Shown in pieces: positions 1,620-34,003 of a stretch of 34,003 nucleotides of DNA. Within the stretch, counting starts at the first letter, position 1, and every line of letters begins with the position of its first letter. Source of the DNA: Nitrospinota bacterium (GTDB lineage Bacteria; JADFOP01); assembly GCA_022562795.1 (NCBI GenBank), contig JADFOP010000020.1:1-34003 (forward strand), in the 5' to 3' direction. Below the pieces are notes generated by a model. It had not been told where the DNA came from and made no database searches. It saw nothing but the letters and a program-made list of their open reading frames with translations. Position numbers and translations under genes: made by a program.

Positions 1620-2405
1620 TCACGATGCCACGACGGAGTCCACGGCGGCCTCCAGGTCCGGCAGTCCGGCGGCGGCCCCTTTTACGGCGTAGAGGAAGAA
1701 CTCCCGGTTTCCCTTCGGCCCTTTGAGGGGCGAGGCAATAAGGCCCGCCACCGTAAGCCCCAGGGCTTGGGCCGACTCGGCCACCTCCAGAATCACACGG
1801 CGGTGCTTGGCCCGATCCCGAACCACACCTCCCCTGCCCACCTCTCCGCGCCCCACCTCGAACTGGGGCTTGACGAGGCCAAGCAGCCATCCGCCCTCCT
1901 TGATGAGTGGCGCGAGGGGGGGGAATATTAGCCGAAGGGAGATGAAGGCCACATCGATAGTAGCCCCGTCGAGGGGTTCGGGGATGTGCTCGTCCGACAG
2001 GTAGCGGGCGTTGAGTTCCTCCAGGACGACCACCCGTGGGTCGGCCCTGAGAGCGGCGTCTATAAGACCTTTGCCCACATCTACTGCGTAGATTTTCCCT
2101 GCGCCGTGCTGCAATAGGCAGTCGGTGAAGCCACCCGTCGATGCGCCGAGGTCTGCGCAGACGGCCCCCTCAAGGGGGGGGTCGAAGGTGTCGAGGGCGG
2201 CCTTCAGCTTCTCGCCGCCGCGGGAGACGTAGGGGGGAATCTCTAGGAGGGCGATTTCGGCCTCGGCGGAGACGGCCTTGCCGGCCTTATCGACCACTGC
2301 GCCGTCAACGACGACCCGACCGGCGAGGATTAGGGCCTGGGCCCGGCTGCGTGTCGCCGCCAGGCCGCGCTCGATGAGGAGCTTATCCAGTCGAACCCCG
2401 GCCAT
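1620..2405 (-). CDS. tlyA: TlyA family rRNA 2'-O-methyltransferase
   Basis: S4 domain (RLDKLL), YVSRGGEKL, DLGASTGGFTD, LVKPQFE, GPKGNREF; usual position after dxs. Confidence 0.95.
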   Translation of the reverse strand: MAGVRLDKLLIERGLAATRSRAQALILAGRVVVDGAVVDKAGKAVSAEAEIALLEIPPYVSRGGEKLKAALDTFDPPLEGAVCADLGASTGGFTDCLLQHGAGKIYAVDVGKGLIDAALRADPRVVVLEELNARYLSDEHIPEPLDGATIDVAFISLRLIFPPLAPLIKEGGWLLGLVKPQFEVGRGEVGRGGVVRDRAKHRRVILEVAESAQALGLTVAGLIASPLKGPKGNREFFLYAVKGAAAGLPDLEAAVDSVVAS

Positions 2406-4314
2406 GGCTCATCGGCAGGGGATGACGGGCCTCAAGGGCCTGCTGGACGCTGGCGGCAATTCCCTCGGCGTCAAGGCCGTACGTGCGCCGAAGGAGCTCC
2501 GGGGAGCCCTGTTCGATTAGGCGGTCGGGTAGCCCGATCCGGTGGACCTTCGTCTCGAAGAGCCGGGCGGTCTCCAGAACCTCCAGAACGGCGCTACCGA
2601 AACCACCTGCGAGGGCGTTCTCCTCGACGGTGACTAGGAAACCCACCTGGCGGGCCTGCTCGCAGAGCAGGGCGTTATCGATGGGCTTGATGAAGCGGGC
2701 GTTGACCACGGACGTCTCGATCCCCTCCTCGGCAAGTAGATCGGCCGCCTCGTAGGCCGACCAGACCGTGGAGCCGAAGGCCCAAATGGCCACGTGCCGG
2801 CCGGGCTTAAGCAGCTCGGCCTTGCCGACCTCGAGAGGCTGCAGCGCCTCGTCCCGCTCCTTCCCGAATCCAGCTCCTGAAGGAAAGCATATGGCAGTCG
2901 GGCCGGCCCGTTGGAGGGCCGTCTTGAGCATGGGGCCTAGCTCGCTCTCGTCCTTAGGGGCCATGAGCACCATGTTGGGCGCGAGCCGGAGATAAGAGAT
3001 GTCGAAGGCCCCGAGGCGGCTGGGGCCCCTTTCGCCCGACAGGCCAGCGCACTCGACGGCGAAGGTCACCGGGAGGCTCTGGAGGCAGACATCGTTGAGC
3101 ACCTGGTCGAAGCTCCGTTGGAGGGCGGTGGACGGGATGAGCACGACCGGCTTAAGGCCCTGGCAGGCCAGCCCCGCGGCGAAGGCCGCGGCGTGCTGCG
3201 TTGCGCGGCCCACGTCGTAGAAGCGATTCGGAAACCGCTTGGCGAAGGGCTTGAGCCCGCTCCGCTCCGTCATGCCTGCGGTCACGGCGACGATGGAAGG
3301 GTCCTCCTCGGCCAGCGCCACGAGGATTTCAGCGAAGTCCTCCGCGTAGGTGGGCTGGCCTGTCTTCGCCTTAGGCCGGCCCGATGCGGGATCGAAGGCT
3401 CCGACGGCATGATACACTCCGGGGTACTGCTCGCTGGGCCGGTAGCCCTTGCCCTTTCGCGTAACGACGTGGACGACGACAGCACGCTCCATAGCTCTGG
3501 CGGCCTCAAATGCTTGGGTTAGGTGCCGAATATTGTGACCCTTGATGGGCCCGAGATAAGCGAATCCCATTTCCCGAAAGCGCTTAGCCGGGCCAAGGAG
3601 ACCTCTTACGGCCTCCTCTAGGCGGGCCCCGACCGAGGAGACCGGCTCGCCCACGACGGGGACTACCCGTATTAGTCCAAGGACGCCGTTACGGAGCTTC
3701 GTATAGAGTCGGCCTGAGAGCATTCTACTCAGAAAGGCCGAGAAGGCTTCAATGAGGGAGGCTGGGGCGAACGCATTGTCGTTCAAGACGACAAGCATCT
3801 TCTTGCCGAGGCGGCCCGCGTGAGTTAGGCCTTCGACGGCGACCCCTGCCGTAATGGCGCCGTCGCCGATTATTGCGACCACATCGTGGTCATCGCCCTT
3901 TAGATCCCTGGCTTCAACGAACCCCACGCCCGCCGAGAGGGAGGTGGAGCCATGGCGCGCGTGGTAAAGGTCGTATGGGCTCTCCCGCCGCTGCCCGACC
4001 TCCGAGATACCCTGGTCCTGGTCCGGGGGTGCGAAGCGCTCCCGTTGGCCTGTGAGCAGCTTATGTGTGTATGTCTGATGGCCTCCATCCCATATGAACT
4101 TGTCGCGCGGCGCGCTGAAGACGGTGTGGAGTGCGATGGTGAGCTCCACGGCTGCGAGGTTGCTCGCGAGGTGCCCCCCCCTGGAGGCCACCGCCTCGAT
4201 GATGGATTTACGGACCTCGGCGGCGAGCGCCTTAAGCTGCTTCTCGGTAAGGTGCTTGAGGCTCTCAGGCCCTTGAATCGTGGAGAGAATGGGCCTCATC
4301 TCTAGCTTTTCCAC
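2383..4314 (-). CDS. dxs: 1-deoxy-D-xylulose-5-phosphate synthase homolog with degenerate active site
   Basis: Full-length DXS architecture (GGHLASNL, HQ, GDGA, NDN, KGKGY, NARFIKPID, EEN...GGFG) in xseB-ispA-dxs-tlyA synteny; several catalytic motifs substituted; start 4314 (GTG) or 4299 (ATG). Confidence 0.9.
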   Translation of the reverse strand: MEKLEMRPILSTIQGPESLKHLTEKQLKALAAEVRKSIIEAVASRGGHLASNLAAVELTIALHTVFSAPRDKFIWDGGHQTYTHKLLTGQRERFAPPDQDQGISEVGQRRESPYDLYHARHGSTSLSAGVGFVEARDLKGDDHDVVAIIGDGAITAGVAVEGLTHAGRLGKKMLVVLNDNAFAPASLIEAFSAFLSRMLSGRLYTKLRNGVLGLIRVVPVVGEPVSSVGARLEEAVRGLLGPAKRFREMGFAYLGPIKGHNIRHLTQAFEAARAMERAVVVHVVTRKGKGYRPSEQYPGVYHAVGAFDPASGRPKAKTGQPTYAEDFAEILVALAEEDPSIVAVTAGMTERSGLKPFAKRFPNRFYDVGRATQHAAAFAAGLACQGLKPVVLIPSTALQRSFDQVLNDVCLQSLPVTFAVECAGLSGERGPSRLGAFDISYLRLAPNMVLMAPKDESELGPMLKTALQRAGPTAICFPSGAGFGKERDEALQPLEVGKAELLKPGRHVAIWAFGSTVWSAYEAADLLAEEGIETSVVNARFIKPIDNALLCEQARQVGFLVTVEENALAGGFGSAVLEVLETARLFETKVHRIGLPDRLIEQGSPELLRRTYGLDAEGIAASVQQALEARHPLPMSHGRGSTG

Positions 4315-4329
4315 ATGAACTCCGTTTGC

Positions 4330-5226
4330 TTACCGTCGCCTCGCCACGACGAAGAGGGCCAGCTCCACCAGCAACTCCCCCCCGTCGCCAATCGGCTCCA
4401 AGGCTCCACAGGCGTCCTCGACCAATCGGTCTGCCTCTGCTCGCGAGGCCTCGAGGCCGTGGAGGGAAGGGTAGGTCGCTTTGGCGTGGGCCTCATCTCC
4501 CCCGGTGGCTTTTCCGAGGGTTGTCTCATCACCCACCACGTCGAGAATGTCGTCGACAATCTGGAAGGCAAGGCCTACCGACAGCCCATAACGGCCGAGC
4601 GCCTCGACGGCCTCAGGGTTCCCACCCCCCAGCAGGGCCCCTGTCACCGTGCTCGCGCGTATTAGAGCCGCCGTCTTGTCGGTGTGTATGGCGGTGAGGC
4701 CCGCCTCATCGATCTCGCGGCCCTCGGCCTCAAGGTCAGCCACCTGACCGCCGACCATGCCGGAGGCCCCGGCAGCCTCAGCCACGGTGCGTACGACATC
4801 CATCAGCACGGCTGGCTCCACCGGCCCCCCGTACAATACGGGGTCGCTCAAGAGCTTGAATGCGTAAGTCAAGAGGGCGTCACCGGCGAGGATTGCCATG
4901 GCCTCGCCGAAAACCATGTGGCTCGTGGGCCGGCCGCGCCGGACGTCGCCGTCGTCCATGGCGGGCAGGTCATCGTGGATGAGGCTGTAGGTGTGGATGC
5001 ACTCCAGGGCGCAGGCGGCCGGCAGGGCCTTTGCCTCCTCGCCGCCAACAGCCTCGGCCGCCGCCAGACAGAGAATGGACCGAAGACGCTTGCCGCCGGC
5101 AAAGAGGCTGTAGCGCATCGCCTCATGGAGGGTCGCCGGGGGTGCGTCGGCCGTGGGCAACCACTTATCCAGCGTCCGATCCACCACCTCCCGCTTTACT
5201 GCCAGATAGTCCTCAAGGTCTCTCAC
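4330..5226 (-). CDS. ispA: Farnesyl/geranylgeranyl diphosphate synthase
   Basis: GGKR, HTYSLIHDDLPAMD, RRG, GQ, FQIVDDILD, KATYP. Confidence 0.95.
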   Translation of the reverse strand: MRDLEDYLAVKREVVDRTLDKWLPTADAPPATLHEAMRYSLFAGGKRLRSILCLAAAEAVGGEEAKALPAACALECIHTYSLIHDDLPAMDDGDVRRGRPTSHMVFGEAMAILAGDALLTYAFKLLSDPVLYGGPVEPAVLMDVVRTVAEAAGASGMVGGQVADLEAEGREIDEAGLTAIHTDKTAALIRASTVTGALLGGGNPEAVEALGRYGLSVGLAFQIVDDILDVVGDETTLGKATGGDEAHAKATYPSLHGLEASRAEADRLVEDACGALEPIGDGGELLVELALFVVARRR

Positions 5227-5471
5227 GGCTTCGTTTCCTCTTCATCGGCCTCTGGCTCTGGAGGGTCGGCGGCGAAGAGGCCCTCGTGCTCCAGGGCGAG
5301 TAGCTCGATTTTCTGCTCGGCCTCCTGGAGCTTATCGGCGCAGAAGCGGGCCAGCTTGATACCTTCCTCGAATAGCTTGAGCGATTTCTCGAGGTCGATT
5401 TGGCCATCTTCAAGCTGCTCGACAATGGCCTCAAGCCTTTTGATTGCTTTCTCGAACTTCATCTCACTCAT
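5223..5471 (-). CDS. xseB: Exodeoxyribonuclease VII small subunit
   Basis: FEKAIKRLEAIVEQLE...LEKSLKLFEEG; between xseA and ispA with 4-nt overlaps. Confidence 0.95.
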   Translation of the reverse strand: MSEMKFEKAIKRLEAIVEQLEDGQIDLEKSLKLFEEGIKLARFCADKLQEAEQKIELLALEHEGLFAADPPEPEADEEETKP

Positions 5472-6835
5472 CGCTCTCTCCGGCCCCCGCGTGTCGCCTG
5501 CACCTCGGCCTCCACCTCCCCGTGGCGGAGCGTCACCAGCAAGCCGTCGCCCTCTTTAAGCTGGGCTGCGTCGGTCACGAGTCGTCGGTCAGGAAGCCTT
5601 CTGGCGATAGCGTAGCCTCGCTCCAGGACATTCAAGGGGCTTAGAGCATCGAGGCGCCCGGAAGCCACGCTTAGGCGGTGGCTAAATCGCTGGAGGCAGT
5701 CGCTGATGCGGGTACGCAGGAGACGGTGAGCCTCCACGGCCAGGTGGCGCCTCTCCTCGAGCGCGTAGTGGGGCGCAAGAAGGGCAAGCTCTCTTCCGAG
5801 GGCCCGGGCCACATTCTCGCATTCGGCAAGCTGGAGCCGCACTCCTCGGCCGAGCCTGGAGCGGAGCTCATCTAGGCGCTGGCCAGCTGGAGCAACGACG
5901 CCGTAAGGCGAGGCCAGGGGTCGACGGCGGCAAAGGGCGGCGAGCATTTGGGCCCGAACCGCCCGCTCTGTCTTCGCCGATGCCACGAGGCGTCGGGCGA
6001 GGAGGCGAAGGCGGCGCTCGAGATCGGACTTCATCTGGACGACGAGCTCGGCCGCGGCCGAGGGCGTGGGCGCTCTGACATCGGCCACGAAGTCGGCTAT
6101 GGTGTGGTCGATCTCGTGCCCCACGGCGCTGATGACAGGAACTTTTGAAGCCGCGATGGCCCGGGCCACGACTTCCTCGTTGAAGGCCCAGAGGTCCTCC
6201 AGGCTCCCCCCGCCGCGCGATACGATTAGCACATCGAGGCCCCCGCGCCTGTTGAGGGCCGCGAGGGCAGAGGCGATCTCTTGGGCCGCGCCCTCGCCCT
6301 GTACCCGCACCGGCGCCACCAGGAGGTGGACGTTTGCGAAGCGGCGCTGGATGACTGTTGTGATGTCGTGAAGAGCCGCTCCCGTCGGTGAGGTCACCAC
6401 GCCGATGGTCTGGGGCAGGTAGGGGAGCGGGCGCTTGCGGGCTGAATCAAAGAGCCCCTCGTCGGCGAGCCGCACCTTGAGCTGCTCAAATGCCTGTTGG
6501 AGGAGTCCAAGGCCCAGGGGCTCCATGTATCCGACGACGAGCTGATAGTCGCCCCTCGGTTCGTATACGGTGAGCTGGCCCCTAACCAGCACCTTGAGGC
6601 CGTCTTCGGGCTCGCACCGCAAGCCCCCCTCCTGGTACTTGAAGACCACGCACCTGAGCTGGGCCTCGGAGTCCTTCAGGGTGAAGTAACGGTGGCCTGA
6701 GGCGGGGGCGCGTAGGTTGGATATCTCACCCTCGACCCAGAGGTCTGAAAAGCGGTCCTCCAGCAGATCCCGCACCTCGCGGGTCAAGTCGGCGACTGTA
6801 TATACCCGGCGCTCCGGGGCGGCGATGGCGTTCAT
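5468..6835 (-). CDS. xseA: Exodeoxyribonuclease VII large subunit
   Basis: [45 protein letters not shown]; start ATG 6835 overlaps folD stop (ATGA). Confidence 0.95.
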
Positions 6836-7698
6836 GACGGGCTTCCGCTCGCCCCTTGGAGCCGGCACGCGGTGAGGGTATTTTTCAGCAGCATGGCGAC
6901 CGTCATTGGGCCGACGCCGCCTGGCACCGGGGTGATGGCCCCTGCGACGGCTGCGGCGGCCTCGAAGTCGACATCGCCGACGAGCTTCTCCCCCACCCGG
7001 TTGATGCCGACGTCGATGACACATGCACCGGGCTTTACCATCTCGCCCGTTACGACCGCTGGCCTCCCCGCCGCAGCTATCAGGATGTCGGCGCGGCGTG
7101 CGGTGGCCGCCAGGTCGCGCGTGCGGGTGTGACAGATGGTCACCGTGGCGTGGCGGTGTAGCAGGAGCAGGGCGAGGGGCTTGCCGACGATCGCGCTCCG
7201 GCCGATCACCACAGCCTCGGCACCCTCGATGGGGATGTCGGTGCGGTCAAGGAGCTCTATAATCCCCGCTGGAGTGCAGGGGAGCAGCTCCGCCTTACCG
7301 GCTACCAGCCGGCTGATATTCATTGGGTGGAAGCCGTCCACGTCCTTGGCGGGATCGACGGCCGCGAGGACCGCCTCCTCATCTAGCCGGTCAGGCAGAG
7401 GGAGCTGTACGAGGATGCCGTGGACTTCGGGGTTCTTGCTCAACTCCTCGATGATGGCAAGGAGCTTGTCTTGGCTTACGGAGGCCGGTAGCTCATAGGG
7501 GAAGGAGGCGATGCCGACCTCGGCGCAGGCCCGCTGTTTGGTCTTGACGTAGATTTGACTGGCGGGGTTATCTCCAACGAGCACCGTGGCGAGGCCGGGC
7601 TCCGCGCCCCGGGCCGCCCGGAGTGAGGCGACCTCGGCTTTCAGCTCCTCGCGGATGGCCTGGGCGATGGCTTTGCCGTCGATGATGGTGGCTGTCAT
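6832..7698 (-). CDS. folD: Bifunctional methylene-THF dehydrogenase/cyclohydrolase
   Basis: [46 protein letters not shown]. Confidence 0.97.
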
Positions 7699-10321: not shown

Positions 10322-11371
10322 CTAGACTTTTTCAACCAACCAGCCTTCGATTTCAACTTCCACCGCCCGGTTTAGGAGGTCCACCGAGATGACGATCCTC
10401 TGGCGCTTCTCTATGACCCCCACCATAATGCCCTCGGCTCCCTTCAGGGGCCCGTCGACCACCTGGACCCGATCACCGGTATCAAGGTACGGGTGGTGGC
10501 GGACGTGGAGGCCCGATTCAACAACTTTTTGGATGGAGTGGACTTGCTCCTCGGGAACAGGGACGGGTTTGTCGGCGTAGCCAAGGAGATTGGCCGCGCC
10601 GGGCGTCTTGACGATCTCGAGCCAGGCATCCTTCGTGAGCTCGCACTCGACGAAGAGGTAGCCAGGGAACATGGGTTGAGTGATCCGCTTTTTGCGATCT
10701 TTGCGGCGGCTCCAGACCTCAATTGTTGGCAAGAAGGCGTGAAATTTCTTGCTTAGAAGCCGGTCTGTAACCTTCTGTTCGTGGCGGCTCTTCGTCCTGA
10801 GCGCATACCACTTAACGGAGGGATCTTTCGGGGATTTTAGATGGCCAAGGCCCTCGGGCAGCAGGGCGAGAAGCTCCTCGACCACCTGCTCGGGCGCCCG
10901 GTCGGTCGTCTCAACATTGATGGTGGCCAGGGCGTTATAGACCGGCTCGCGCTCCTCCAAGAGAGCCTCGAAGGAGGCTCGCGGGTCGCCGGGGTCGAAG
11001 AAGGCAGGCAGGCCCTCGTCCATAATGCGGGCAAAGAGCGCTTCTTTCTCCACCTTGAGGTAGACCACACAGGACTGGGCGATCTGTCTCCTAAGGGGCT
11101 CACTGATAAGGGGTGTGCCCCCGCCTAGGGATATCACCTGCCCGTCGGTGGCGATGAGGTCGCCGGCCACTTCGGCCTCCAGCCGCCTGAAAGCCTCCGC
11201 GCCGAGGTTGCGGAAGATATCCCGAAAGGCAAGCGGCTCGCCCGAGCTGGAGGCGTAGCGGTGCTCGATTGCTTGGTCGAGGTCGACGAAAGGCCTCTCA
11301 AGGCGGTGGGCCAGGGCCCGGCCCACGGTCGTCTTGCCCGAGCCTTTAAAGCCGATGAGGACGACGTTCAT
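10322..11371 (-). CDS. Fusion: shikimate kinase (aa ~1-172) plus NusG-paralog UpxY/RfaH-type antiterminator (NGN+KOW, aa 188-349)
   Basis: N-half GFKGSGKT, DLD, FRRLE, GGG, EREPVY; C-half WYALRTKSRHE, PMFPGYLFV, GDRVQVVDGPLKGAEG; single uninterrupted frame. Confidence 0.9.
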   Translation of the reverse strand: MNVVLIGFKGSGKTTVGRALAHRLERPFVDLDQAIEHRYASSSGEPLAFRDIFRNLGAEAFRRLEAEVAGDLIATDGQVISLGGGTPLISEPLRRQIAQSCVVYLKVEKEALFARIMDEGLPAFFDPGDPRASFEALLEEREPVYNALATINVETTDRAPEQVVEELLALLPEGLGHLKSPKDPSVKWYALRTKSRHEQKVTDRLLSKKFHAFLPTIEVWSRRKDRKKRITQPMFPGYLFVECELTKDAWLEIVKTPGAANLLGYADKPVPVPEEQVHSIQKVVESGLHVRHHPYLDTGDRVQVVDGPLKGAEGIMVGVIEKRQRIVISVDLLNRAVEVEIEGWLVEKV

Positions 11372-12366
11372 CAGCCGCCTCCAGTGGTGACCGCTTCCTG
11401 TATTATACGGGCCCAGCCTGGGGATGGCAACGGCGGAAGGCGCCGCCTCAGAGAGTTCAGGACCGCCGAAGCGTCAGCCTCTACATCGTCGCTGGCCTCC
11501 ACCCACTCGATGCCTGGCAGCTTGCGGAACCAGGTCATTTGCCGCTTGGCGTAGCGGCGGGTCTCGCGCATTATGTCCGCCTGGGCTTCCTCGATAGTGC
11601 ACGTCCCGGCCAGGTGCTCGGCCATCTGGCGGTAGCCGATCCCTTGGAGAGCCGGCAGTTCAAGCCCATAGCCCGCCTCCAGGAGCGAGCTGACCTCCTC
11701 TGCCACCCCGGCGTCTATCATGGCCTCGACCCGGGCAGTGATCCGCTCGGCCAGCGCCGCGCGCGGACGGACCAACCCCACGGCCACGAGTCGGAAGGGC
11801 CCGGGCGTCTCGGCTGCCCTCCGTTGCATGGAACTGATTGGCTCCCCGGTGAGCACGTAGACCTCCAGCGCTCTCACGATTCGGACAAGGTCGTGGGGAT
11901 GGATCGACTCGGCCGCCTCGGGGTCCACCGCCGCCAGCCGTGCGTGGAGGGCAGGTCGGCCCTTGGCCTCGGCCTCCGCCCTCAGGCCGGCCCGGAGGTC
12001 CGGGTCCGACGGGGGTCCCGGAAAGAGTCCCTCAGCCAGGGCACGAAGATAGAGGCCGCTGCCTCCCACCACGAGCGGCCAGACAGCCCGCTCGAAGCAG
12101 AAAGCAGCCGCTTTACGGGCGGCCTTCCCAAAGTCTGCTGCGGTGAAGTGGTCGTGAGGGTTGGCTAGATCGAGGCCGTGATGTGTGATGCGAGTCCGGT
12201 CGGCGGCCGTCGGCTTGGCCGTTCCGATATCCATGCCACGGTAGACCTGCCGGGAATCACAACTGAGAATTTCAGCCGGTAGGGCCTCGGCCACAGGAAG
12301 GCTTACAGCCGTCTTGCCCACGGCCGTCGGTCCCACGATGGCTGGAAGTGGCAGGAGATTCCCCAC
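11371..12366 (-). CDS. miaA: tRNA dimethylallyltransferase
   Basis: GPTAVGKT, DSRQVYRGMDIGTAKP, VGGSGLY, IGY, TRRYAKRQMTWF; GTG at 12366 preceded by GGAGG. Confidence 0.95.
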   Translation of the reverse strand: MGNLLPLPAIVGPTAVGKTAVSLPVAEALPAEILSCDSRQVYRGMDIGTAKPTAADRTRITHHGLDLANPHDHFTAADFGKAARKAAAFCFERAVWPLVVGGSGLYLRALAEGLFPGPPSDPDLRAGLRAEAEAKGRPALHARLAAVDPEAAESIHPHDLVRIVRALEVYVLTGEPISSMQRRAAETPGPFRLVAVGLVRPRAALAERITARVEAMIDAGVAEEVSSLLEAGYGLELPALQGIGYRQMAEHLAGTCTIEEAQADIMRETRRYAKRQMTWFRKLPGIEWVEASDDVEADASAVLNSLRRRLPPLPSPGWARIIQEAVTTGGG

Positions 12367-12385
12367 GACTGGCCCTCCCGGGAAC

Positions 12386-12414
12386 AAAGAAAAAGCCGGG
12401 GCAGAGCCCCTGCC
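12386..12414 (-). terminator. Candidate intrinsic terminator between ihfB and miaA
   Basis: Minus strand GGCAGGGGC-TCT-GCCCC-GGC-TTTTTCTTT. Confidence 0.4.
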
Positions 12415-12467
12415 TCTCAAAGGGTTTGGTCTACTAGAGGTGAGCCGGCGGCATGGGGCGAAAGCCT

Positions 12468-18479: not shown

Positions 18480-20165
18480 ATGCCCGCAACCGACACCGAG
18501 GCGCTCGGCCTAATCGATGAAGTCCTGGACTCTTACTGTCGGGCCAACCCTGTATGGGCAACCTACGCCGGCGTGCGAGATTTCGACGGCGCCCTACCCG
18601 ACCTGCGAGCCGAGGCCAGGCAGGAGTGGCTGGAGGCCAGGAAGGATTTCGCCCGGCGGCTCAAAGAGGTCCTGGAAGATGGCGAGGGGCTGTCGCGCGA
18701 TGCGCGACTCGATCTCGACTTCCTCAAGCGCAAATTGGATATGGAGGTCTCTTTGGAGGAAGCCACACGTCCGGCGGAGCGCAATCCGACACTCGCCCCC
18801 AAGAGCGCCCTATACGGGCTCTACTTCCTTACGCTTAGGCCCTTCGGGGACGAGGGGGAGCGGGCCGCTCGGCTGAGCGAGAGGCTACGGGGTGTGCCGG
18901 CTCTCTTGGAGGAGGGCGCCCGGCAGCTCGTTGAGCCTGCAGAGGTTCCTCCCCTCTGGGTGACGGTCGCCCGCCAGCTCGTCCAGGGTGGGGATACCTT
19001 CATCGCCGCTGTGGTGCCCGCATTGGCTTCCGAGGCCCCCTCGTTGGCCTCCGATCTCGATCGGGCCAGCGCAGTGGCCCGAGATTCCTTGGAAAAGTAT
19101 GGCCGCTTTCTTGACAAGCTCGCCGAGCGGGCCGCCGGAGACTTCGCCGTGGGGGAGGCCCTCTTCAACAGCATCTGTCAGGACTTCCACGGTCTCGGCC
19201 ACAGGGCGGGCGATCTGGTGGCAATAGGCCACGACGCGATCGATCAGACGAAAGCGGCTCTCGCAGAGGAGGCCCGCCTCATCGAGGCAGGCGAGGACTG
19301 GGAGAGCGTTACCGAGAGGCTTCAGGGTGATGTGGTCGAGCCCTCCGAAGTCCTCCCTCTCTACCGCGATCAGATGGAGAGAGCGCGCCGGTTCGTCGAG
19401 GAGCGGGACCTGGCGACCATCCCGGAGGATGAGCGGCTGGAGATTGTCCCAACGCCTCCCTTCGCCCGGGTCATCATCCCATACGCCGCCTACATCCCAC
19501 CCGGGGCTTTTGAGGCCGACCAGACCGGCTACTTTTGGGTGACCCCGGTGGATGAGGCCGACCCGAAGGTCCGATCCGAGCGCCTTCGGGGTCATTGCCC
19601 GACGAAGGCCCAGGTGACCGCGCTGCACGAGGCTTACCCGGGCCACCACCTCCAGTTCACCAGGGCCAACCGCTTGGCCTGGCCCGTCCGGAAGCTTTTC
19701 TCCTCGACGGTCCTGGTGGAGGGATGGGCTCTTTACTGTGAGGAGCTCATGTACGAGGAGGGTTTTTATACCGAGCCCGGGGTGCGCTTCATGGAGCTGC
19801 TCGGCCAGCTCTGGCGGGACTGTCGGGTAGTCATCGACGCTTCCCTTCACACGAGGCAAATGACGCCCGAGCAGGCCGTGGAGATGCTCGTGAGCGTGGC
19901 CAAGCTCTCCCGGCCAAACGCCGAGGCCGAGGTGCTCCGATACACCTTAAGCCCCACCCAGCCGATGAGCTACCACATGGGCAAGCGCGAGCTGCTCTTC
20001 TTGCGGACGGCCTACCGGCAGCTGCTCGGAGACCGATTCGACCTGAAAGCGTTCCACGACAAGCTGCTCGACTTTGGGAGCCTGCCGCTACCCACCATCC
20101 GGGACGCCATGCTCGAAGACGCCCGGGGCCTGTCCTCGGCAGGTGGTGTCGGGGTTCCGGCTTAG
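18480..20165 (+). CDS. DUF885 family protein (putative zinc metallopeptidase)
   Basis: NPVWATYAG, HEAYPGHHLQ, EGWALYCE, PTQPMSY, FDLKAFHD; AGGAGG before ATG 18480. Confidence 0.9.
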   Translation: MPATDTEALGLIDEVLDSYCRANPVWATYAGVRDFDGALPDLRAEARQEWLEARKDFARRLKEVLEDGEGLSRDARLDLDFLKRKLDMEVSLEEATRPAERNPTLAPKSALYGLYFLTLRPFGDEGERAARLSERLRGVPALLEEGARQLVEPAEVPPLWVTVARQLVQGGDTFIAAVVPALASEAPSLASDLDRASAVARDSLEKYGRFLDKLAERAAGDFAVGEALFNSICQDFHGLGHRAGDLVAIGHDAIDQTKAALAEEARLIEAGEDWESVTERLQGDVVEPSEVLPLYRDQMERARRFVEERDLATIPEDERLEIVPTPPFARVIIPYAAYIPPGAFEADQTGYFWVTPVDEADPKVRSERLRGHCPTKAQVTALHEAYPGHHLQFTRANRLAWPVRKLFSSTVLVEGWALYCEELMYEEGFYTEPGVRFMELLGQLWRDCRVVIDASLHTRQMTPEQAVEMLVSVAKLSRPNAEAEVLRYTLSPTQPMSYHMGKRELLFLRTAYRQLLGDRFDLKAFHDKLLDFGSLPLPTIRDAMLEDARGLSSAGGVGVPA

Positions 20166-20615
20166 GCCCGCCTGAGGCGGAAGGTTGGATTGCCAGGAAT
20201 TTCCAGCTAAAACCCTCAAGCCTTATAATTTTAATTGCTTACAAGAATTGGACACCTCCTTTAGACCCGTCTATTTCCCGGAAGCTCGTGATTCTTAATA
20301 ATCGCAGCAAAATCAACAGCTTATGGTAAGTTGAGATTTTTGGACGCTATTTGACACCGTAGGCTTAATTCCAAGGCTGGTGTCTCCTACAAGTCCAGTA
20401 AAATCAATATACAAAGTCCATTTTGGTACATTTGGAAAGTTGTCAAGATGTGTCAAAAAGTGTCAAATCTGTCCAATCTCTCAGGTCGCGGCAGATGGTG
20501 TCGGGGTCCGGGGCGACCCCGACTACCCCAAAGTGTGGGAATGCCCTTTGCGGCCCTCCGCCAAAATATAAGGTGTCGTGGTTCCGCCTGACGTCCGCCT
20601 GAGGCGGAACTACCC
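20137..20615. repeat. Three related GC-rich REP-like palindromic repeats (~20137-20182, 20489-20528, 20572-20615)
   Basis: All contain GGTGTCGKGGT; copy 2 has 9-bp stem GTCGGGGTC/GACCCCGAC; copies 1 and 3 share CCGCCTGAGGCGGAA; copies 2 and 3 start with GTAG on the minus strand. Confidence 0.65.
20221..20477. mobile_element. AT-rich att-like site with an IHF box and phased arm-type repeats
   Basis: IHF consensus AATCAACAGCTTA at 20311-20323; TGTCAA at 20441, 20451, 20461 and TGTCCA at 20470; inverted copies at 20248, 20340, 20350. Confidence 0.45.
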
Positions 20616-20882
20616 TTTAATTAAAATTCAGGCAGTATAGAATGTACGGGAAGTGCGTGACGACCACCCTTGCATTTTGATACTACTCTTTTAAGATGCG
20701 GATTGGGGGTGCGTCTTCGCCCGGCTGTTCAACTGGATTATCCCAAGCGGGTCTAAAGTAGATAGGACGTGGACGATACGCTGATCCCGACGCCGGACTT
20801 ATCTCCCGTTATTTTCAACATAGGTCGGGAGTCTCCGCGATCTCGCTCTCCCTTTAGCCCGATTAAGCGATAGGAGGCTTTC

Positions 20883-22289
20883 ATGAACGGAATGAGGTTT
20901 GGTCTTGTTGGTATGCTCGTTGGGTCAATCGTGCTGTTTTCTTCAGGGGCTACACGGTCCGCTGAGGAGAGCCAAGTCGTCACAGCCGACGACCGGACGG
21001 CGCTGACGCTAACCATCTACGACCGGGGGTCGGCCCTGGTTGAGGAGACCCGCCGGGTGCGCCTTCCTGCTTCCGGGAGGATTGTATGGCGGGATGCGCC
21101 TAAGACTTTAGACCCTACGAGCGTTCAGCTTGAAGGCCCCAGGGGGCTTCAAGTCCTGGAGGAGCGCTTCCTCTACGACCCCCTCACTCATGAACGTCTC
21201 CTCAAAGCCGCCCGGGGCGGGCGGGTCGACCTCGTGGTGACGTCCCAGCAGACGGGCGAGGAGAGCAGAACTGAGGCCGTACTCCTCGCCGCCGAGGGCG
21301 CCCCGGTATTCCAGATCGGGGAGGAGGTCCATTTGGGACATCCCGGCCGCGTAGTCCTGCCCCGCATGCCCGGATCACTCGTCCCGGAGCCGGAGCTACT
21401 CTGGAAGCTTGCAGGTCCGACAGGCGAAGCGGCCCTCACCGCCCGTTATCTAGCCGAGGGGTTCAATTGGCGGGCCGACTACGTTCTCCGAATTGACGAG
21501 GCGTCTCTGGTAGGAACCCTCTCTGGGGTCTTCGCCGTCACCAACACAAGCGGGGCCGACGTCCGCGACGCCTCCGTCCAGCTTGTGGCCGGCACTGTTG
21601 GGCGCGTGAAGCCCCCTATAGTCCCGTTGGCCAGGGGTGTCCGGGCGATGGCCGAGAGGGTCGCTGAGGCCCCTGTCGCCGACCTCCACCGCTACACGGT
21701 CGAGGAACCCGTAACCGTGGCCGACGGCCGCACGGTACGCCTCGGCTTCCTCCAGGCCGATAGGCTTCGGCTCGGGCGCCGCTACGAGGTTCGCGGGGGC
21801 TGGCCCGTCCTTCTAAGGCCGCGCTCGGAAGAAGAGCGGCTCCCTGTGGCCGTAATCTGGTTAATGGCAAACACGTCCGAGGCGGGCCTCGGCCGCCCTC
21901 TGCCAGGCGGCACCCTCCGGGTCTACGTTGCCCAGGATGACCGACCCCTCCTGTTCGCCGGCGAGGTGGGCCTGGGTCATACTCCTGCGGGGGTTGAGGA
22001 GGTCAAGTTAGAGACGGGCCTGGCCTTCGATCTTGTGGCGAAGCGCAGGCAGACGGAATTTCAGCGCCTTGGGAAGGATCTCTACGAGTCGGCGTGGCGG
22101 GTGACGATCGAGAACCACAAGAGAGTTGAGGCTTCCGTTCGCCTCGTCGAGCACATCCCACCCCAGGCCGAGATAATCTCGGCGAGCCACGCGCATGAGC
22201 GGGCGGCCGCCGATAGGCTCGTCTTCGATATGGTTGTACCGGCAGACAAGGCCGTAGAGGTCACCTACAAGGTCAGGGTGCGTCGGTAG
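20883..22289 (+). CDS. DUF4139 family exported protein
   Basis: Signal peptide; LTIY..ALVEETR, LDPTSV, WRADY, VTNTSG, LGRPLPGGTLRVY, GLAFD; AGGAGG RBS. Confidence 0.88.
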   Translation: MNGMRFGLVGMLVGSIVLFSSGATRSAEESQVVTADDRTALTLTIYDRGSALVEETRRVRLPASGRIVWRDAPKTLDPTSVQLEGPRGLQVLEERFLYDPLTHERLLKAARGGRVDLVVTSQQTGEESRTEAVLLAAEGAPVFQIGEEVHLGHPGRVVLPRMPGSLVPEPELLWKLAGPTGEAALTARYLAEGFNWRADYVLRIDEASLVGTLSGVFAVTNTSGADVRDASVQLVAGTVGRVKPPIVPLARGVRAMAERVAEAPVADLHRYTVEEPVTVADGRTVRLGFLQADRLRLGRRYEVRGGWPVLLRPRSEEERLPVAVIWLMANTSEAGLGRPLPGGTLRVYVAQDDRPLLFAGEVGLGHTPAGVEEVKLETGLAFDLVAKRRQTEFQRLGKDLYESAWRVTIENHKRVEASVRLVEHIPPQAEIISASHAHERAAADRLVFDMVVPADKAVEVTYKVRVRR

Positions 22290-22535
22290 GGGGTCTCTGA
22301 GGGACCGGCTCTATGTTTGGGGATTGCGAAATGTCCCAGGAAGGTTAAAATGGTTATCGGAGAGGGGAGTTGATTGAGCTCGAGGGATGCTCCCGCCTCT
22401 CTGGCAGATTTCGTCCCCTTGTACGTCGCTACAGCCGAGGGGGTCCAAGGGCGAAGTAAATGCCTTACCGGGAGTATGTTGTGACGAAGTCGCTCTCCCT
22501 TATCAAACTTCAGGGCATGAAAGGAGGTATCGCTC

Positions 22536-23099
22536 ATGCGCGTGCTATTTAGCCTTCTTCTCCTTGTGGCCATGGTCGGCCAGGTCGAGGCTCAAGCCCC
22601 GGCGTCCAAACGCGGGCCTAAGGGCCCCAAGTGGAAGGTGAAAGAACAATCCACGGTGAAAAAAGCACCAGACACTAAAAAGGCGCCAGACACTGAGGAT
22701 ATCGCAAGAACCATTTTTAGCGAAATCGAGAGGCGCATCATCGAGAGATATTTTGGCAAAAAGGAGGCTCCGGAGGAGGAAAAGGTTGAGAAGGGCAAGG
22801 GGGCCAAGGGCAAGAGCAAAGCGATGCCACACGGCCTCGCCAAGCGGGAGACACTCCCCCCCGGTCTTGCCCGCCATGTCGAACGTCACGGCGGCTATCT
22901 GCCGCCGGGACTACAGAAGCGCGATTTCCCTGACGACCTAGCTTCGCTCCTGCCGAAGACGTCGCCCGGCCTAGAACGGGTGATCGTCGACAACAATGTG
23001 GTGCTGATCGAGAGGGCGACCGGGCTGGTCCTCGACGTTCTCGAAAACGTGTTAAAGAAGAAAGACATCGGCGCTAAAGGCCACCGCTCAGAGGATTAG
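22536..23099 (+). CDS. Exported Lys-rich protein with LPPGL repeats
   Basis: AGGAGG RBS, signal peptide, MPHGLAK/LPPGLAR/LPPGLQK, C-terminal RVIVDNNVVLIERATGLVLDVL. Confidence 0.75.
   Translation: MRVLFSLLLLVAMVGQVEAQAPASKRGPKGPKWKVKEQSTVKKAPDTKKAPDTEDIARTIFSEIERRIIERYFGKKEAPEEEKVEKGKGAKGKSKAMPHGLAKRETLPPGLARHVERHGGYLPPGLQKRDFPDDLASLLPKTSPGLERVIVDNNVVLIERATGLVLDVLENVLKKKDIGAKGHRSED
22659..22694 (+). repeat. 18-bp tandem duplication encoding KKAPDT twice
   Basis: aaaaaagcaccagacact / aaaaaggcgccagacact. Confidence 0.8.
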
Positions 23100-23349
23100 C
23101 AAGACGCAAAGCATAGGGGATTCCACATCCCAATGGCGCAATCAGTGATGGATTAAGCACGGGTTTTCTTGTTCCTGGGGGACGATAATTGGTAGTAATT
23201 AACCTAATTTTCATGTAATGTAGAGCCACGATTGCCTGTGATAATCTTCCCCGCCATTTGGTCCATTTACCATTAACAATGAGTACATGTGATTACTTGA
23301 GGCATATCGTAGGCTCTCCAAAAAAAACTATACATTTGTAAAAAAGGCC

Positions 23350-23377
23350 TTGCGTTCTTTCACAGACCCCGTAGAAT
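23350..23377 (+). promoter_or_regulatory. Sigma70-type promoter
   Basis: TTGCGT-16 nt-TAGAAT with A-rich upstream tracts. Confidence 0.55.
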
Positions 23378-23452
23378 GGCACCTTGTGTGCCCGGGAGCG
23401 GTTTCCCCGGAAGAGGAGTAATTAATTAAATTACAAAGGGTTGAGCGCCTTA

Positions 23453-23478
23453 GGGCCCTTTGAGGGGCCCATTTTTTT
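23453..23478 (+). terminator. Intrinsic terminator upstream of the kinase-like gene
   Basis: GGGCCCT-TTGA-GGGGCCC-ATTTTTTT. Confidence 0.7.
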
Positions 23479-23543
23479 GGCGACACGGCACGGCCGGAAC
23501 TAGGACGAAGCAAAGACGCGCACGACAACGAAACGGGATTGAG

Positions 23544-24011
23544 ATGCCAGGCAATTTGCTCTTAAAACTTCAGGCGGCTGTCAATGAAGGGAGAACCATC
23601 AACGATCTTGATAATATTTATCTCGTTGAGGATGGGATTATCGGAAAACGGTGCCGGAATAAAGAGCGCGCCTATAACGAATATGAGATAGGAAAATTTC
23701 TTTTTGAGAATGGCGTGCAAGTTCCTAATATGTTCAATTTAATTACGCCGGGTTCCTTAATGATTCGTAAATCCTCCAAAAACTCTCCAAAAGATTGGTT
23801 CATATTGATGGAAAGAATAAAGGGTAAAACCATAAAGGAGTTGGCCGGAATAGAGAAAAAGGAGGCGATTGAACAACGCAAGTCTGAGTTAGAAAAAGTT
23901 TTGGCTCTGAATGTCCATCATCCTGACTCCGCTTATGACGATAATTCGATATATGATGCAAAGCAGAAGAAGTTATACCTAATTGATTTCGAACATTGGA
24001 GAAAATTATAA
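23544..24011 (+). CDS. Minimal protein-kinase-like protein (Bud32/RIO/Kdo-kinase-like), 155 aa, AT-rich
   Basis: K...AYNEY, VQVP, ILMERIKG, VHHPD....N, LYLIDFE. Confidence 0.7.
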   Translation: MPGNLLLKLQAAVNEGRTINDLDNIYLVEDGIIGKRCRNKERAYNEYEIGKFLFENGVQVPNMFNLITPGSLMIRKSSKNSPKDWFILMERIKGKTIKELAGIEKKEAIEQRKSELEKVLALNVHHPDSAYDDNSIYDAKQKKLYLIDFEHWRKL

Positions 24012-30782: not shown

Positions 30783-31015
30783 GCCAGGTGGGCGTGGGTC
30801 TTCGGCCAGAGCCTGCCACTGTCTGGGAAGCCCGTCAAGGATATTCGGGGAGCCTGGAAGGCGGCTTGTAGGGCGGTAGGGTTGGAAGGTAAGCTCTTTC
30901 ACGACCTTCGGAGGACCGCTGTATGGATGCCTATCACGCCTCAATGGGCACAATCTCCGGCAATGTGAGAGTTGCAGAGCGGATTATTGAGGACGTTCAG
31001 GCGGGTTTAAGGTAA
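30783..31015 (+). pseudogene. Tyrosine integrase fragment
   Basis: From 30795: WVFGQSLPLSGKPVKDIRGAWKAACRAVGLEGKLFHDLRRTAV (HxLR box); in-frame TAA at 30780; second His and catalytic Tyr region missing. Confidence 0.8.
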
Positions 31016-31097
31016 GGGCAATTTCTGATGAAATATTAACTAACGGAATTGCTCGCATAGTGCATATTTCATCGTGAAATAGAAACTAGGTAATATC

Positions 31098-31418
31098 TCA
31101 AATCTCCCAGGCGTCGATCCCCCCCTCAAGAACCGAGACTTTTAGAAAACCCTTTTCTCTCATCCTGGCCGCCGAACTGGCGGCCGAGCCTTCGCCAGGT
31201 CAGGTTCAATAGAAAACGATATCCTGTTCCGGGTTTAGAACAACATACCGCTGGTGGAGCACTACCTTTGGGATCGAGATGGCCCCCGGCACGCGGTGGT
31301 CGTTGAAGCTTTCTACCCTACGGACATCTACGATAACCAGGTCTGCTTCCTTCTGTTTAAGCTCCCTGATTGCCTGGGGGGTGATACGTGGAATTTCCTC
31401 TGCAAGCACCGTCGTCAT
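31098..31418 (-). CDS. Single-domain rhodanese, predicted double selenoprotein (Y-U-T-U-P), 106 aa
   Basis: IVDVR, HRVPGAISIP, DIVFY, then TGA-ACC-TGA, then in frame PGEGSAASSAARMREKGFLKVSVLEGGIDAWEI*; GGAGGTG RBS. Confidence 0.85.
31164..31199 (-). promoter_or_regulatory. Candidate bacterial SECIS hairpin for the rhodanese
   Basis: GGCCGCC-AGTTC-GGCGGCC 7-bp stem with loop 21 and 27 nt after the two UGAs; possible lower stem CCTGG/CCAGG. Confidence 0.7.
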
Positions 31419-31542
31419 TGGGAATCACCTCCTTTTGGGACGATAATTTCCTTTTGAAAAGGATACTACTACCTCCTGGAAGCCCCCCAAGAGAGGGACA
31501 GGTCCCAAAACCTTTTGGGATAATCTGCTTCTATCTATTTGC

Positions 31543-31893
31543 CTAACCCTCGTTAATCAGCCCAAGAAGTTCGTTGGCGGTATCACCATGTAAGTCTTTG
31601 AGAATGTTATACTCTTTCACTGCGCCCTCTCGGTTGCCGATTCTATGGTAAGCTAGGCCCAAATTATAGTGCGCCCCGACAAGGTCGGGCTTCAGAAGTA
31701 TCGCCACCTTGAATGCCATCACCGCTTCTTCGTAGCGGCCAAGATTCCCGTAAGCCGATCCCAAGTTATAGTGGGCCTCGGCATCGTCAGGCTTAAGGCG
31801 AATCGCTTCCTTGTACGACGCTTTTGCATCCTCGTGATGCCCTGAACGAAGTCCCTTAAGCCCCTGTTCTAGCAGCGAAGAAAGGTCTTCCAT
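31543..31893 (-). CDS. Small TPR protein
   Basis: AEAHYNLG, GAHYNLG, YKEAIRLKPD. Confidence 0.85.
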   Translation of the reverse strand: MEDLSSLLEQGLKGLRSGHHEDAKASYKEAIRLKPDDAEAHYNLGSAYGNLGRYEEAVMAFKVAILLKPDLVGAHYNLGLAYHRIGNREGAVKEYNILKDLHGDTANELLGLINEG

Positions 31894-31929
31894 CAAGTAG
31901 GCTCCGTTTATCGATTATTAGGGCTGGAT

Positions 31930-31969
31930 AAATTCTACCACAGGCCAGGCGAGCGGGGGTAGGAGGATG
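31930..31969 (-). repeat. ~40-bp promoter-like repeat, copy 1
   Basis: aaattctaccacaggccaggcgagcgggggtaggaggatg; minus strand contains TGGTAGAAT. Confidence 0.65.
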
Positions 31970-32038
31970 TAGCTGTGTGGGCTAAGGAGAGAGACTTGCT
32001 CCGCTTAACCTATTGTTTCGTAAACTCAGGACTGAATT

Positions 32039-33526: not shown

Positions 33527-33566
33527 TCGGCTCTCAATTCACTTTGCCATTGAGTATACCCACTAG

Positions 33567-33683
33567 TCATACTATAGACTTTTTCAAATCCTCTGTCATT
33601 AAAAAAGCTGCCAGTTGAGCGAAAACTAAAACCACTATGCACAACAACGCAATATTTTTAGAGGATTTAATGGTTTTCATCAT
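33567..33683 (-). CDS. Small ORF, 38 aa, one hydrophobic segment (small membrane protein or truncated N-terminus)
   Basis: GGAGG-TTTA-ATG; MMKTIKSSKNIALLCIVVLVFAQLAAFLMTEDLKKSIV*; 38 nt downstream of repeat copy 2. Confidence 0.45.
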   Translation of the reverse strand: MMKTIKSSKNIALLCIVVLVFAQLAAFLMTEDLKKSIV

Positions 33684-33720
33684 TAAACCTCCATTATAAT
33701 TTGTATAACGGGGAGTTGTG

Positions 33721-33759
33721 AAATTATATCATAACCAGGCGTGTGGGGGTAGGTGAATG
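33721..33759 (-). repeat. ~40-bp promoter-like repeat, copy 2
   Basis: aaattatatcataaccaggcgtgtgggggtaggtgaatg; minus strand contains TGATATAAT. Confidence 0.65.
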
Positions 33760-34003
33760 CCATCTATCTTTTTTATGCTCCGTCCGGCAGGGGTCTGGTG
33801 ACCACTACCTCACCCTCTAGCCTTGCCTTTCGGTAGTGTTCTGTGTCCGACAGACGATCTTGTGCGCTTTTCGGAGTGCTTTCGCTTAGGGGGGGAAATT
33901 ACTATTTCAACCGAAATATGCCCCTGGGAGGCAGGGGAGCATCATGGCCGAGCTGAAATCATCCAGGCGGCTCAGCCTTTCGTCTGGGGCGGAACGTAGC
34001 CCT

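Follow-up and report, generated by a model that had tools for sequence, protein, structure and literature searches.

DXS, the synthase of DXP (1-deoxy-D-xylulose 5-phosphate), controls flux at the point of entry into the methylerythritol phosphate (MEP) pathway, and is a target for drugs and for engineering. The stretch of DNA analysed here (the window: 34,003 nucleotides, positions 1 to 34,003 of contig JADFOP010000020.1 of the Nitrospinota bacterium assembly GCA_022562795.1) carries what looks like a complete dxs gene, and yet many residues of the DXS active site are replaced in its product. Can such a protein still make DXP, and if it cannot, why has its gene been kept and which enzyme supplies DXP? 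The answer that we favour, as probable rather than certain, is that the window protein is a conserved pseudo- or neo-functionalised DXS and that DXP is supplied by another enzyme; to judge from its sequence, the protein most likely no longer makes DXP. The gene and the domains of its product are as follows.

2383..4314, minus strand: DXS-like open reading frame (ORF; product P0001), 643 codons, GTG start at 4314, TAA stop at 2383-2385, zero internal stops
Residues 10-285 of the product: PF13292 (DXP_synthase_N), 309.8 bits
Residues 321-479 of the product: PF02779 (Transket_pyr), 96.6 bits
Residues 497-619 of the product: PF02780 (Transketolase_C), 107.1 bits
2386..2832, minus strand: domain III (residues 495-643), in which 14/14 family-invariant columns are kept

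A GGAG lies 5 nt 5′ of the GTG start. The DXS equivalog model TIGR00204 spans the ORF end to end (669.8 bits, cut-off 465.95), and the three-domain architecture together with this score makes the product a member of the DXS family. HMMER aligns its residues 7-624 to residues 8-616 of Escherichia coli (Ec) DXS (PDB entry 2o1s, chain 2o1s_A; E = 1.7e-152), with a full-length identity to the solved DXS of 45%; the predicted fold is that of DXS, which is not in question. The sites at which catalysis is expected read as follows.

4075..4092, minus strand: WDGGHQ, with GHQ kept (Ec H80)
4021..4023, minus strand: Asp98, replacing Ec R99, a residue of the lactyl-thiamine diphosphate network
3994..4011, minus strand: GISEVG motif
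3775..3867, minus strand: GDG-x25-NDN, the Mg-thiamine diphosphate (Mg-ThDP) diphosphate motif, residues 150-180, intact (Ec D152, N181)
3193..3216, minus strand: DVGRATQH, with Ec E370 (the ThDP-activating Glu) replaced by Thr372 (codon 3199-3201) and Ec I368 by Arg370
3115..3138, minus strand: IPSTALQR, with Ec Y392 replaced by Pro394 and F395 by Ala397; Ec R398 is kept as R400
3016..3054, minus strand: ECAGLSGERGPSR, with Ec D419 replaced by E, R420 by C (Cys422), D427 by R (Arg429) and H431 by R (Arg433)
2875..2889, minus strand: CFPSG, with Ec R475 replaced by C, Y476 by F and R478 by S (Ser479)

The ThDP-activating glutamate, a Glu in 100% of 216 canonical DXS, has become Thr372, and the arginines that bind D-glyceraldehyde 3-phosphate (D-GAP), Ec R420 and R478, are Cys422 and Ser479. 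The aminopyrimidine pocket, which we take to be formed by Ec F395, Y392 and I185, is altered at all three positions (I185 reads Pro184), each of them 100% conserved in canonical DXS. The network that stabilizes the lactyl-ThDP intermediate (Ec R99, D427 and H431) reads Asp98, Arg429 and Arg433; the Mg-ThDP diphosphate motif (GDG...NDN) is present. According to excerpts of a recent preprint, R478 and R420 are important in D-GAP binding, the R420A variant showing ‘extremely inefficient turnover’, and D427, H431 and R99 form the network that keeps the lactyl-ThDP intermediate (bioRxiv 10.1101/2025.03.03.641193). The original prediction for this locus, made from the DNA letters, had described an uninterrupted 643-codon ORF at 2383..4314 (its strand, unstated there, is minus), a change of DVGIAEQH to DVGRATQH with the Thr codon at 3199-3201, the motifs IPSTALQR, ECAGLSGERGPSR, CFPSG and GISEVG, and the retention of GHQ, GDG and NDN. 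The ORF is as described, the Thr codon stands exactly where it was placed, every other motif was found at its computed coordinates, and the alignment to E. coli DXS (2o1s) bears out the mapping to Ec E370, Y392, R420, D427, H431 and R478. Ec F395 (A397) and R99 (D98) are losses beyond that list.

Two comparison sets give the scale of this departure. At the columns that are at least 93% conserved with respect to 29 DXS from other genomes, the window protein deviates at 26/117, and each of the 29 DXS in the same test deviates at 0-15 of 66-109 columns, most of them at 0-5; the DXS of a genome of the same class (G002, below) is canonical and deviates at 1/103 conserved columns. The second set comprises the 216 canonical DXS (212 database matches of 600-700 residues plus four close relatives, the ‘sisters’ introduced below). 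At its columns conserved to at least 97%, the window protein retains 101/134; for the four sisters, and for ten canonical DXS drawn at random, the number is 132-134 of 134 (0-2 lost). The departure from DXS conservation is far beyond chance. The window protein thus resembles canonical bacterial DXS (E. coli 2O1S, Deinococcus radiodurans 2O1X; TIGR00204) in its three domains, full-length alignment, operon context and score above the equivalog cut-off, and differs from it in being without E370, Y392, F395, R420, D427, H431, R478 and R99, with 33/134 invariant columns replaced.

The window protein does not stand alone. A word-indexed protein search scored 7,998 candidates, 7,966 of them at E <= 1e-50, and the figures that follow are for the 120 matches listed. 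Seven of these exceed 60% identity to the window protein, the remainder reaching about 52% at most. Three relatives are degenerate as well: P0002 (97% identical), P0003 (73%; source name ‘MAG: ... [Nitrospinota bacterium]’, MAG being a metagenome-assembled genome) and P0008 (63%). The sisters P0004-P0007 (64-65% identical), and also the partial product of a metagenome locus, L044, are fully canonical. A search with P0008 as the query added P0122, a C-terminal fragment that is 80% identical to P0008 and also degenerate. All five members of this small clade from uncultured bacteria (P0001, P0002, P0003, P0008 and P0122) are open, four of them being full-length. Seven changes are uniform among them (Y392 to P, D419 to E, V78 to G, S184 to A, I185 to P, G190 to E and G300 to A), and F395 is replaced by A or G. 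Other positions vary in the order given above: T/T/V/A/T at the activating glutamate, C/C/H/G/G at R420 and R/R/P/P/P at H431. The cofactor site is also degenerate in P0003, which reads GDS...NDS, and in P0008, which reads DGD...NDR and is without the H122 loop; both are also without Ec H122 and H299.

We built a tree of 29 rows (the five degenerate proteins, four sisters and 20 chosen canonical DXS) with IQ-TREE under LG+G4, using a quick search and supports from the Shimodaira–Hasegawa-like approximate likelihood-ratio test (SH-aLRT) only. The degenerate proteins are monophyletic (SH-aLRT 100) and lie inside a group with the canonical sisters (support 100), a topology that points to their derivation from a canonical DXS of the same lineage. 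The clade has a stem of 0.26 changes per site, with inner branches of 0.17-0.29, compared with 0.05-0.10 for the canonical sisters: its rate of evolution is about 3-4 times theirs.

We may wonder at this stage whether the frames have stayed open by chance. Neutral mutation was simulated on the window's own coding sequence, with transitions and transversions at 1:1 per event and indels excluded. Stop-free runs fell from 128/300 at 3% amino-acid divergence to 32/300 at 10%, 3/300 at 20%, 1/300 at 27% and 0/300 at 36%. The clade has diverged by 27-37% with four full-length open frames and, as 0-1 of 300 simulated runs are stop-free at that divergence, such frames are not expected under neutrality. 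The losses are also unevenly spread over the protein. The window protein has lost invariant columns in domain I (17/74) and in domain II (16/46), but none of those in domain III (0/14; 33/120 for I and II together versus 0/14 for III; Fisher p 0.02), and domain III has lost 0/14 in 5/5 clade members. Identities for domains I/II/III are 70.5/66.7/83.9% for P0001-P0003 and 62.8/62.6/78.5% for P0003-P0008, both degenerate pairs, and 84.8/85.1/71.8% for P0004-P0006 and 59.1/67.2/56.2% for P0005-P0014, both canonical pairs. Domain III is the best-conserved domain within the degenerate clade and the least conserved between the canonical pairs compared. On these alignments, selection appears to have moved away from domains I and II, which are catalytic, and towards domain III at the C-terminus. 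Loss of catalytic residues and purifying selection across orthologues, the two marks of a pseudo-enzyme, are both found here, at the amino-acid level.

Whether the degenerate proteins and their canonical sisters are orthologues depends on the surroundings of the gene, which in the window are as follows.

6832..7698, minus strand: folD, family match; first gene of the conserved block
5468..7024, minus strand: xseA, family match from residue 76; the true start probably lies downstream of the listed one
5223..5471, minus strand: xseB, family match
4330..5226, minus strand: ispA, farnesyl/geranylgeranyl diphosphate synthase, immediately upstream of the DXS-like ORF
2383..2405, minus strand: dxs-tlyA overlap of 23 nt, the 3′ end of the dxs-like ORF lying over the tlyA start codon and encoding the tail HGRGSTG
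1620..2405, minus strand: tlyA, TlyA-family rRNA 2′-O-methyltransferase (TIGR00478, 225.4 bits), the downstream operon member

The order on the minus strand, folD-xseA-xseB-ispA-dxs-like-tlyA, is the ancestral context of dxs, and is the order of Bacillus subtilis as well; the original prediction of a normal operon agrees with these neighbours, all on the same strand. At L044, the one close locus from our scans of metagenomes and of the genome collection (it is partial, and the other matches were ordinary DXS, 38-50% identical), the canonical sister stands directly after an ispA fragment. The product of that fragment is 78% identical (99/127) to the IspA of the window, and the two DXS proteins are 60% identical. 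The tail H[AG]RGSTG, here an out-of-frame reading of the tlyA start, is common to sisters and degenerate proteins. From this shared tail and the ispA-dxs adjacency at L044 we infer that all of them occupy one ispA-dxs-tlyA slot, and that degenerate proteins and canonical sisters are positional orthologues.

We then turn to the genome. The source genome (G000) is a MAG of 2.15 Mb in 84 contigs, 97.1% complete; its phylum has only three species in the genome collection, the other two being G001, of the same genus (85% complete, 780 contigs), and G002, of the same class. TIGR00204 has seven matches in G000, and the one above the cut-off is the window gene, so that G000 contains no second DXS; the six others belong to two split transketolases (contigs C7 and C28) and the alpha and beta subunits of pyruvate dehydrogenase (PDH) E1 (C52). 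No DXS of any kind was found in G001, at 85% completeness and with the whole tlyA-dxs-ispA stretch unassembled there. The chance of missing a canonical dxs in both genomes is about 0.03 x 0.15 if the misses are independent. HMG-CoA reductase, for the mevalonate route, was not found in G000, G001 or G002 (0/3), and neither was any RuBisCO or RuBisCO-like protein (RLP) of the methylthioadenosine (MTA)-isoprenoid shunt (0/3). In contrast to these absences, the demand for DXP is plain: dxr, ispH and ispG are above cut-off in 3/3 genomes, and G000 contains ispD, ispE, ispF, pdxA, pdxJ, thiC, thiE and thiG, which means that DXP is needed for isoprenoids, pyridoxal 5′-phosphate and thiamine. MiaA (inside the window), an octaprenyl-diphosphate synthase and one gene of the futalosine pathway are also present.

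If its sole DXS homologue is dead and the DXP-consuming pathways are present, then the cell must obtain DXP from elsewhere. In the mechanism that we propose, the dxs positional orthologue would have turned into a pseudo-enzyme, or an enzyme of other function, with the three-domain DXS fold kept and the ThDP-activating and D-GAP-binding residues lost, and hence DXP synthesis gone. The protein would retain a non-catalytic role, which we guess to lie in regulating or scaffolding the supply of precursors, and in this species its intact GDG-NDN site may still hold a diphosphate ligand. DXP itself would be made by another pyruvate-decarboxylating ThDP enzyme.

Several observations weigh against this reading, and other explanations have to be set beside it. 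The window protein might still be the cell's DXP synthase, using ThDP without the glutamate and binding D-GAP through the new R370, R429 and R433. The genome, in which three pathways need DXP, has no other DXS homologue; the protein's TIGR00204 score exceeds the cut-off; and its diphosphate side is whole, unlike that of P0003 and P0008 (GDG, NDN, Ec H49, H80, H122, K284, H299 and R398). Together with the arginines gained at 370, 429 and 433, this leaves room for a modified ThDP chemistry, which this species may have. A precedent exists in glyoxylate carboligase, a ThDP enzyme that works with Val in place of the activating Glu, a replacement common to its whole family in the excerpts of PMC3534367. 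The likeness lies in the replaced Glu (Val there; T/V/A in the present clade); that enzyme belongs to another branch of the superfamily and has kept its cofactor and substrate sites, whereas here the substrate site, and in some members the cofactor site, is lost. We consider continued DXP synthesis unlikely, because seven or eight independent active-site positions have been lost together, including R420 and R478 (R420A turns over ‘extremely inefficiently’ in the excerpted preprint, bioRxiv 10.1101/2025.03.03.641193), because different residues (T/V/A) have taken the place of the Glu, as expected of a site under no constraint, and because P0003 and P0008, without GDG, NDN, H122 and H299, are conserved all the same, so that conservation of the clade does not come from ThDP catalysis. 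A canonical dxs could also exist and be missing from the assembly, the dead copy then being a paralogue-like regulator or heterodimer partner. G000 is a MAG of 84 contigs in which a second dxs could have gone unbinned at 97.1% completeness, the tlyA-dxs-ispA region is unassembled in G001, canonical sisters at 64-65% identity do occur in metagenomes, and plant DXS3-class proteins coexist with active DXS (PMC10675008, in excerpt). This is nevertheless highly improbable in our view: neither G000 nor G001 has a second DXS, with the small joint chance of a miss given above, and the dead copy sits in the ancestral ispA-dxs-tlyA slot that a canonical sister occupies in a relative, which points to orthologues and not paralogues.

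The gene may, finally, have no function as a protein, its frame being held open only through the tlyA overlap (translational coupling or avoidance of polarity). Besides the 23-nt overlap with the tlyA start, this would fit the faster evolution and higher pN/pS compared with neighbouring genes and one out-of-frame relative: P0145 is 91% identical to degenerate P0008 over about 280 N-terminal residues and then runs out of frame, either because one population carries a broken copy of the dead DXS or because the assembly is at fault. The pN/pS values come from strain differences. At least half of the gene's sampled words occur in 19 runs from eight studies, of sediment or marine sediment metagenomes and one labelled ‘metagenome’, and contigs of three of these runs gave a small, pre-filtered sample, 40 of 178 differences. 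In this sample, 13 codons of the DXS-like gene are changed (seven nonsynonymous and six synonymous, pN/pS about 0.40), compared with six nonsynonymous and 17 synonymous differences in the neighbouring genes (pN/pS about 0.13); neither the contrast with the neighbours (Fisher p 0.15) nor that with neutrality (binomial p 0.09) is significant. The branch lengths of P0003, P0008 and P0122 may be inflated by unusual composition, which treekit flagged in these three. An open frame without a protein function is very unlikely all the same, given that the amino acids are constrained too: domain III keeps 14/14 invariant columns in all five members, with an identity of 72-84% within the clade, the proteins as a whole are still 60-73% identical across a distance that changed IspA by 22%, and the losses are concentrated in the catalytic domains (33/120 versus 0/14, Fisher p 0.02). 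A conserved protein that has left DXP synthesis therefore remains our preferred reading. The original prediction, that the protein probably cannot make DXP and is yet retained, gains support, at the level of sequence, from losses common to a monophyletic, intact clade and confined to the catalytic domains, and from open frames unexpected under neutrality. It had offered three options, of which a non-catalytic or new role stands, recent decay is contradicted by the monophyletic clade of open, degenerate relatives, and partnership in a heterodimer with a second dxs is left unsupported, with no second DXS in G000 (97% complete) or G001 (85%). The check that it had called for, of the genome for a second dxs or a mevalonate route, turned up neither in G000.

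Which enzyme, then, could make the DXP? A scan with TPP_enzyme_C finds five ThDP enzymes in G000: a 2-oxoacid:ferredoxin oxidoreductase, an indolepyruvate-oxidoreductase-like protein, PDH E1 alpha, the C7 transketolase and a 589-residue protein that lies outside the window.

G000:C56:23261-25030 (locus L145:1762-3531), minus strand: 589-aa ThDP enzyme

This protein adjoins a divergent ilvD on one side and ilvC-psd-pssA-leuA on the other, the interval in which ilvBN is usually located. It reaches 68-75 bits on acetolactate synthase (ALS) models with cut-offs of 538 and 976, and 51 bits in its best match to any solved structure; the alignment retains the activating Glu and GDG...NN. Matches to the canonical ALS large subunit exceed the cut-off in G002 and 14/14 control genomes, and in neither G000 nor G001. 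Conversely, the 589-aa enzyme is present in G000 and G001 (90% identical, again adjoining ilvC) and in 0/399 other genomes at E <= 1e-80 (2/401 searched). It has 551 metagenomic homologues at E <= 1e-10 among 8,000 scored candidates, 60-76% identical among the matches listed; the few names that they bear are ‘thiamine pyrophosphate-binding protein’, ‘thiamine pyrophosphate-dependent enzyme’ and ‘acetolactate synthase large subunit’, and their organism labels include Methylomirabilales, Rokubacteria and Armatimonadetes. The sparing reading is that this enzyme would be the cell's ALS. The reactions of ALS and DXS both set out from hydroxyethyl-ThDP derived from pyruvate, and acetohydroxyacid synthases can use aldehydes as acceptors, which makes the C56 enzyme the first candidate for the source of DXP, as a lead and not a finding. 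After it we would rank PDH E1 alpha/beta (C52), the split transketolases (C7 and C28) and something not yet recognisable. That the genus has lost both canonical pyruvate-condensing ThDP enzymes, DXS and ALS, that the C56 enzyme family supplies both acetolactate and DXP and that the dead DXS is kept as a regulator or partner of this supply is, as a whole, unlikely; if true, the natural alternative to Dxs, long sought, would have a concrete candidate in the C56 enzyme.

The neighbourhoods of dxr, ispD/F, ispE, ispG, ispH, pdxJ and thiG (about 4.5 kb on each side) were inspected for a replacement and hold ordinary neighbours, with two exceptions. One is a 611-aa protein (G000:C11:19429-21264, plus strand) encoded 113 nt upstream of ispH, which has no Pfam or NCBIfam match, begins with a hydrophobic anchor, contains several cysteines and has a tail rich in Pro; the other is an antisense-looking ORF. 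The two transketolases of G000 (G000:C7:121111-122917 and G000:C28:31287-33073) are both split into N and C subunits, and no full-length one is present. Only 0.7 kb separates the C7 pair from pdxA, and about 7 kb separates it from ispD-ispF; the C28 pair adjoins a DegT/PseC-type sugar aminotransferase.

Inactive DXS-like proteins have been described in plants. In the excerpts of PMC10675008, DXS-deficient E. coli is not complemented by DXS3-class proteins, which are without a TPP-binding site and for which a distinct function is proposed. These class-3 proteins (DXS3/DXL) share with the window protein that they are DXS homologues that seem inactive; they differ in being extra paralogues beside active DXS1/DXS2 in eukaryotic plastids (PMC10675008, same excerpts), whereas the window protein is bacterial and occupies the operon's ancestral slot, and no other DXS homologue was found in its genome. 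The degenerate clade probably arose independently of plant DXS3, because it nests inside bacterial sisters (SH-aLRT 100) in the tree of 29 rows described above. In the literature on inactive DXS-like proteins, no inactive bacterial DXS appears among the matches listed, by title and start of abstract, and the DXS-like cases there are from plants; the present clade would be the first bacterial counterpart found of the plant DXS3-type inactive DXS.

The excerpted text of PMC10663253 reports 181/4,400 species in which Dxs alone is missing, leaves 172 of these without an explanation and concludes that there is probably an alternative to Dxs; the bypasses that it names are the MTA shunt and the AceE, RibB and YajO suppressors. 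Functionally G000 would fall into the class of MEP-complete-but-Dxs bacteria as these excerpts define it (PMC10663253), also without the RLP of the MTA-isoprenoid shunt, and differs from it in that the dxs gene is retained as a conserved degenerate protein. This would be a different route to the Dxs-less state, with a gene that is present and scores as a true DXS, yet is catalytically gutted and conserved. With a dead first enzyme (here at 669.8 bits), the MEP pathway can still pass as complete in reconstructions based on hidden Markov models. The small, defined genome of 2.15 Mb is one in which a replacement source of DXP must exist under our reading, with a short list of ThDP enzymes that includes the family that also displaced ALS.

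A few further features of the window should be noted. The long xseA ORF shares 193 nt with folD (6832-7024, minus strand), and a strain difference at 6850, seen in 3/3 DNA runs compared, introduces a stop at ‘codon 59’ of the long ORF and is synonymous in folD; with the family match beginning at residue 76, this places the true xseA start further downstream. An apparent frameshift in the DXS-like gene, a C inserted behind 4173 in one contig of run X19, was rejected, as it lies about 20 nt from the contig end and a second contig is without the insertion there. At 10322-11371 (minus strand), adjoining miaA (11371-12420), a 349-aa ORF encodes an unusual fusion, with a shikimate kinase domain in residues 10-170 and a NusG N-terminal (NGN) domain in residues 187-280. 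Two stretches have a low G+C content compared with about 0.65 elsewhere in the window: 20000-24000 (0.44-0.52), with three ORFs without Pfam matches (20883-22289, 22536-23099 and 23460-24011), and 31000-34003 (0.39-0.50), with a SelO gene at 32039-33526.

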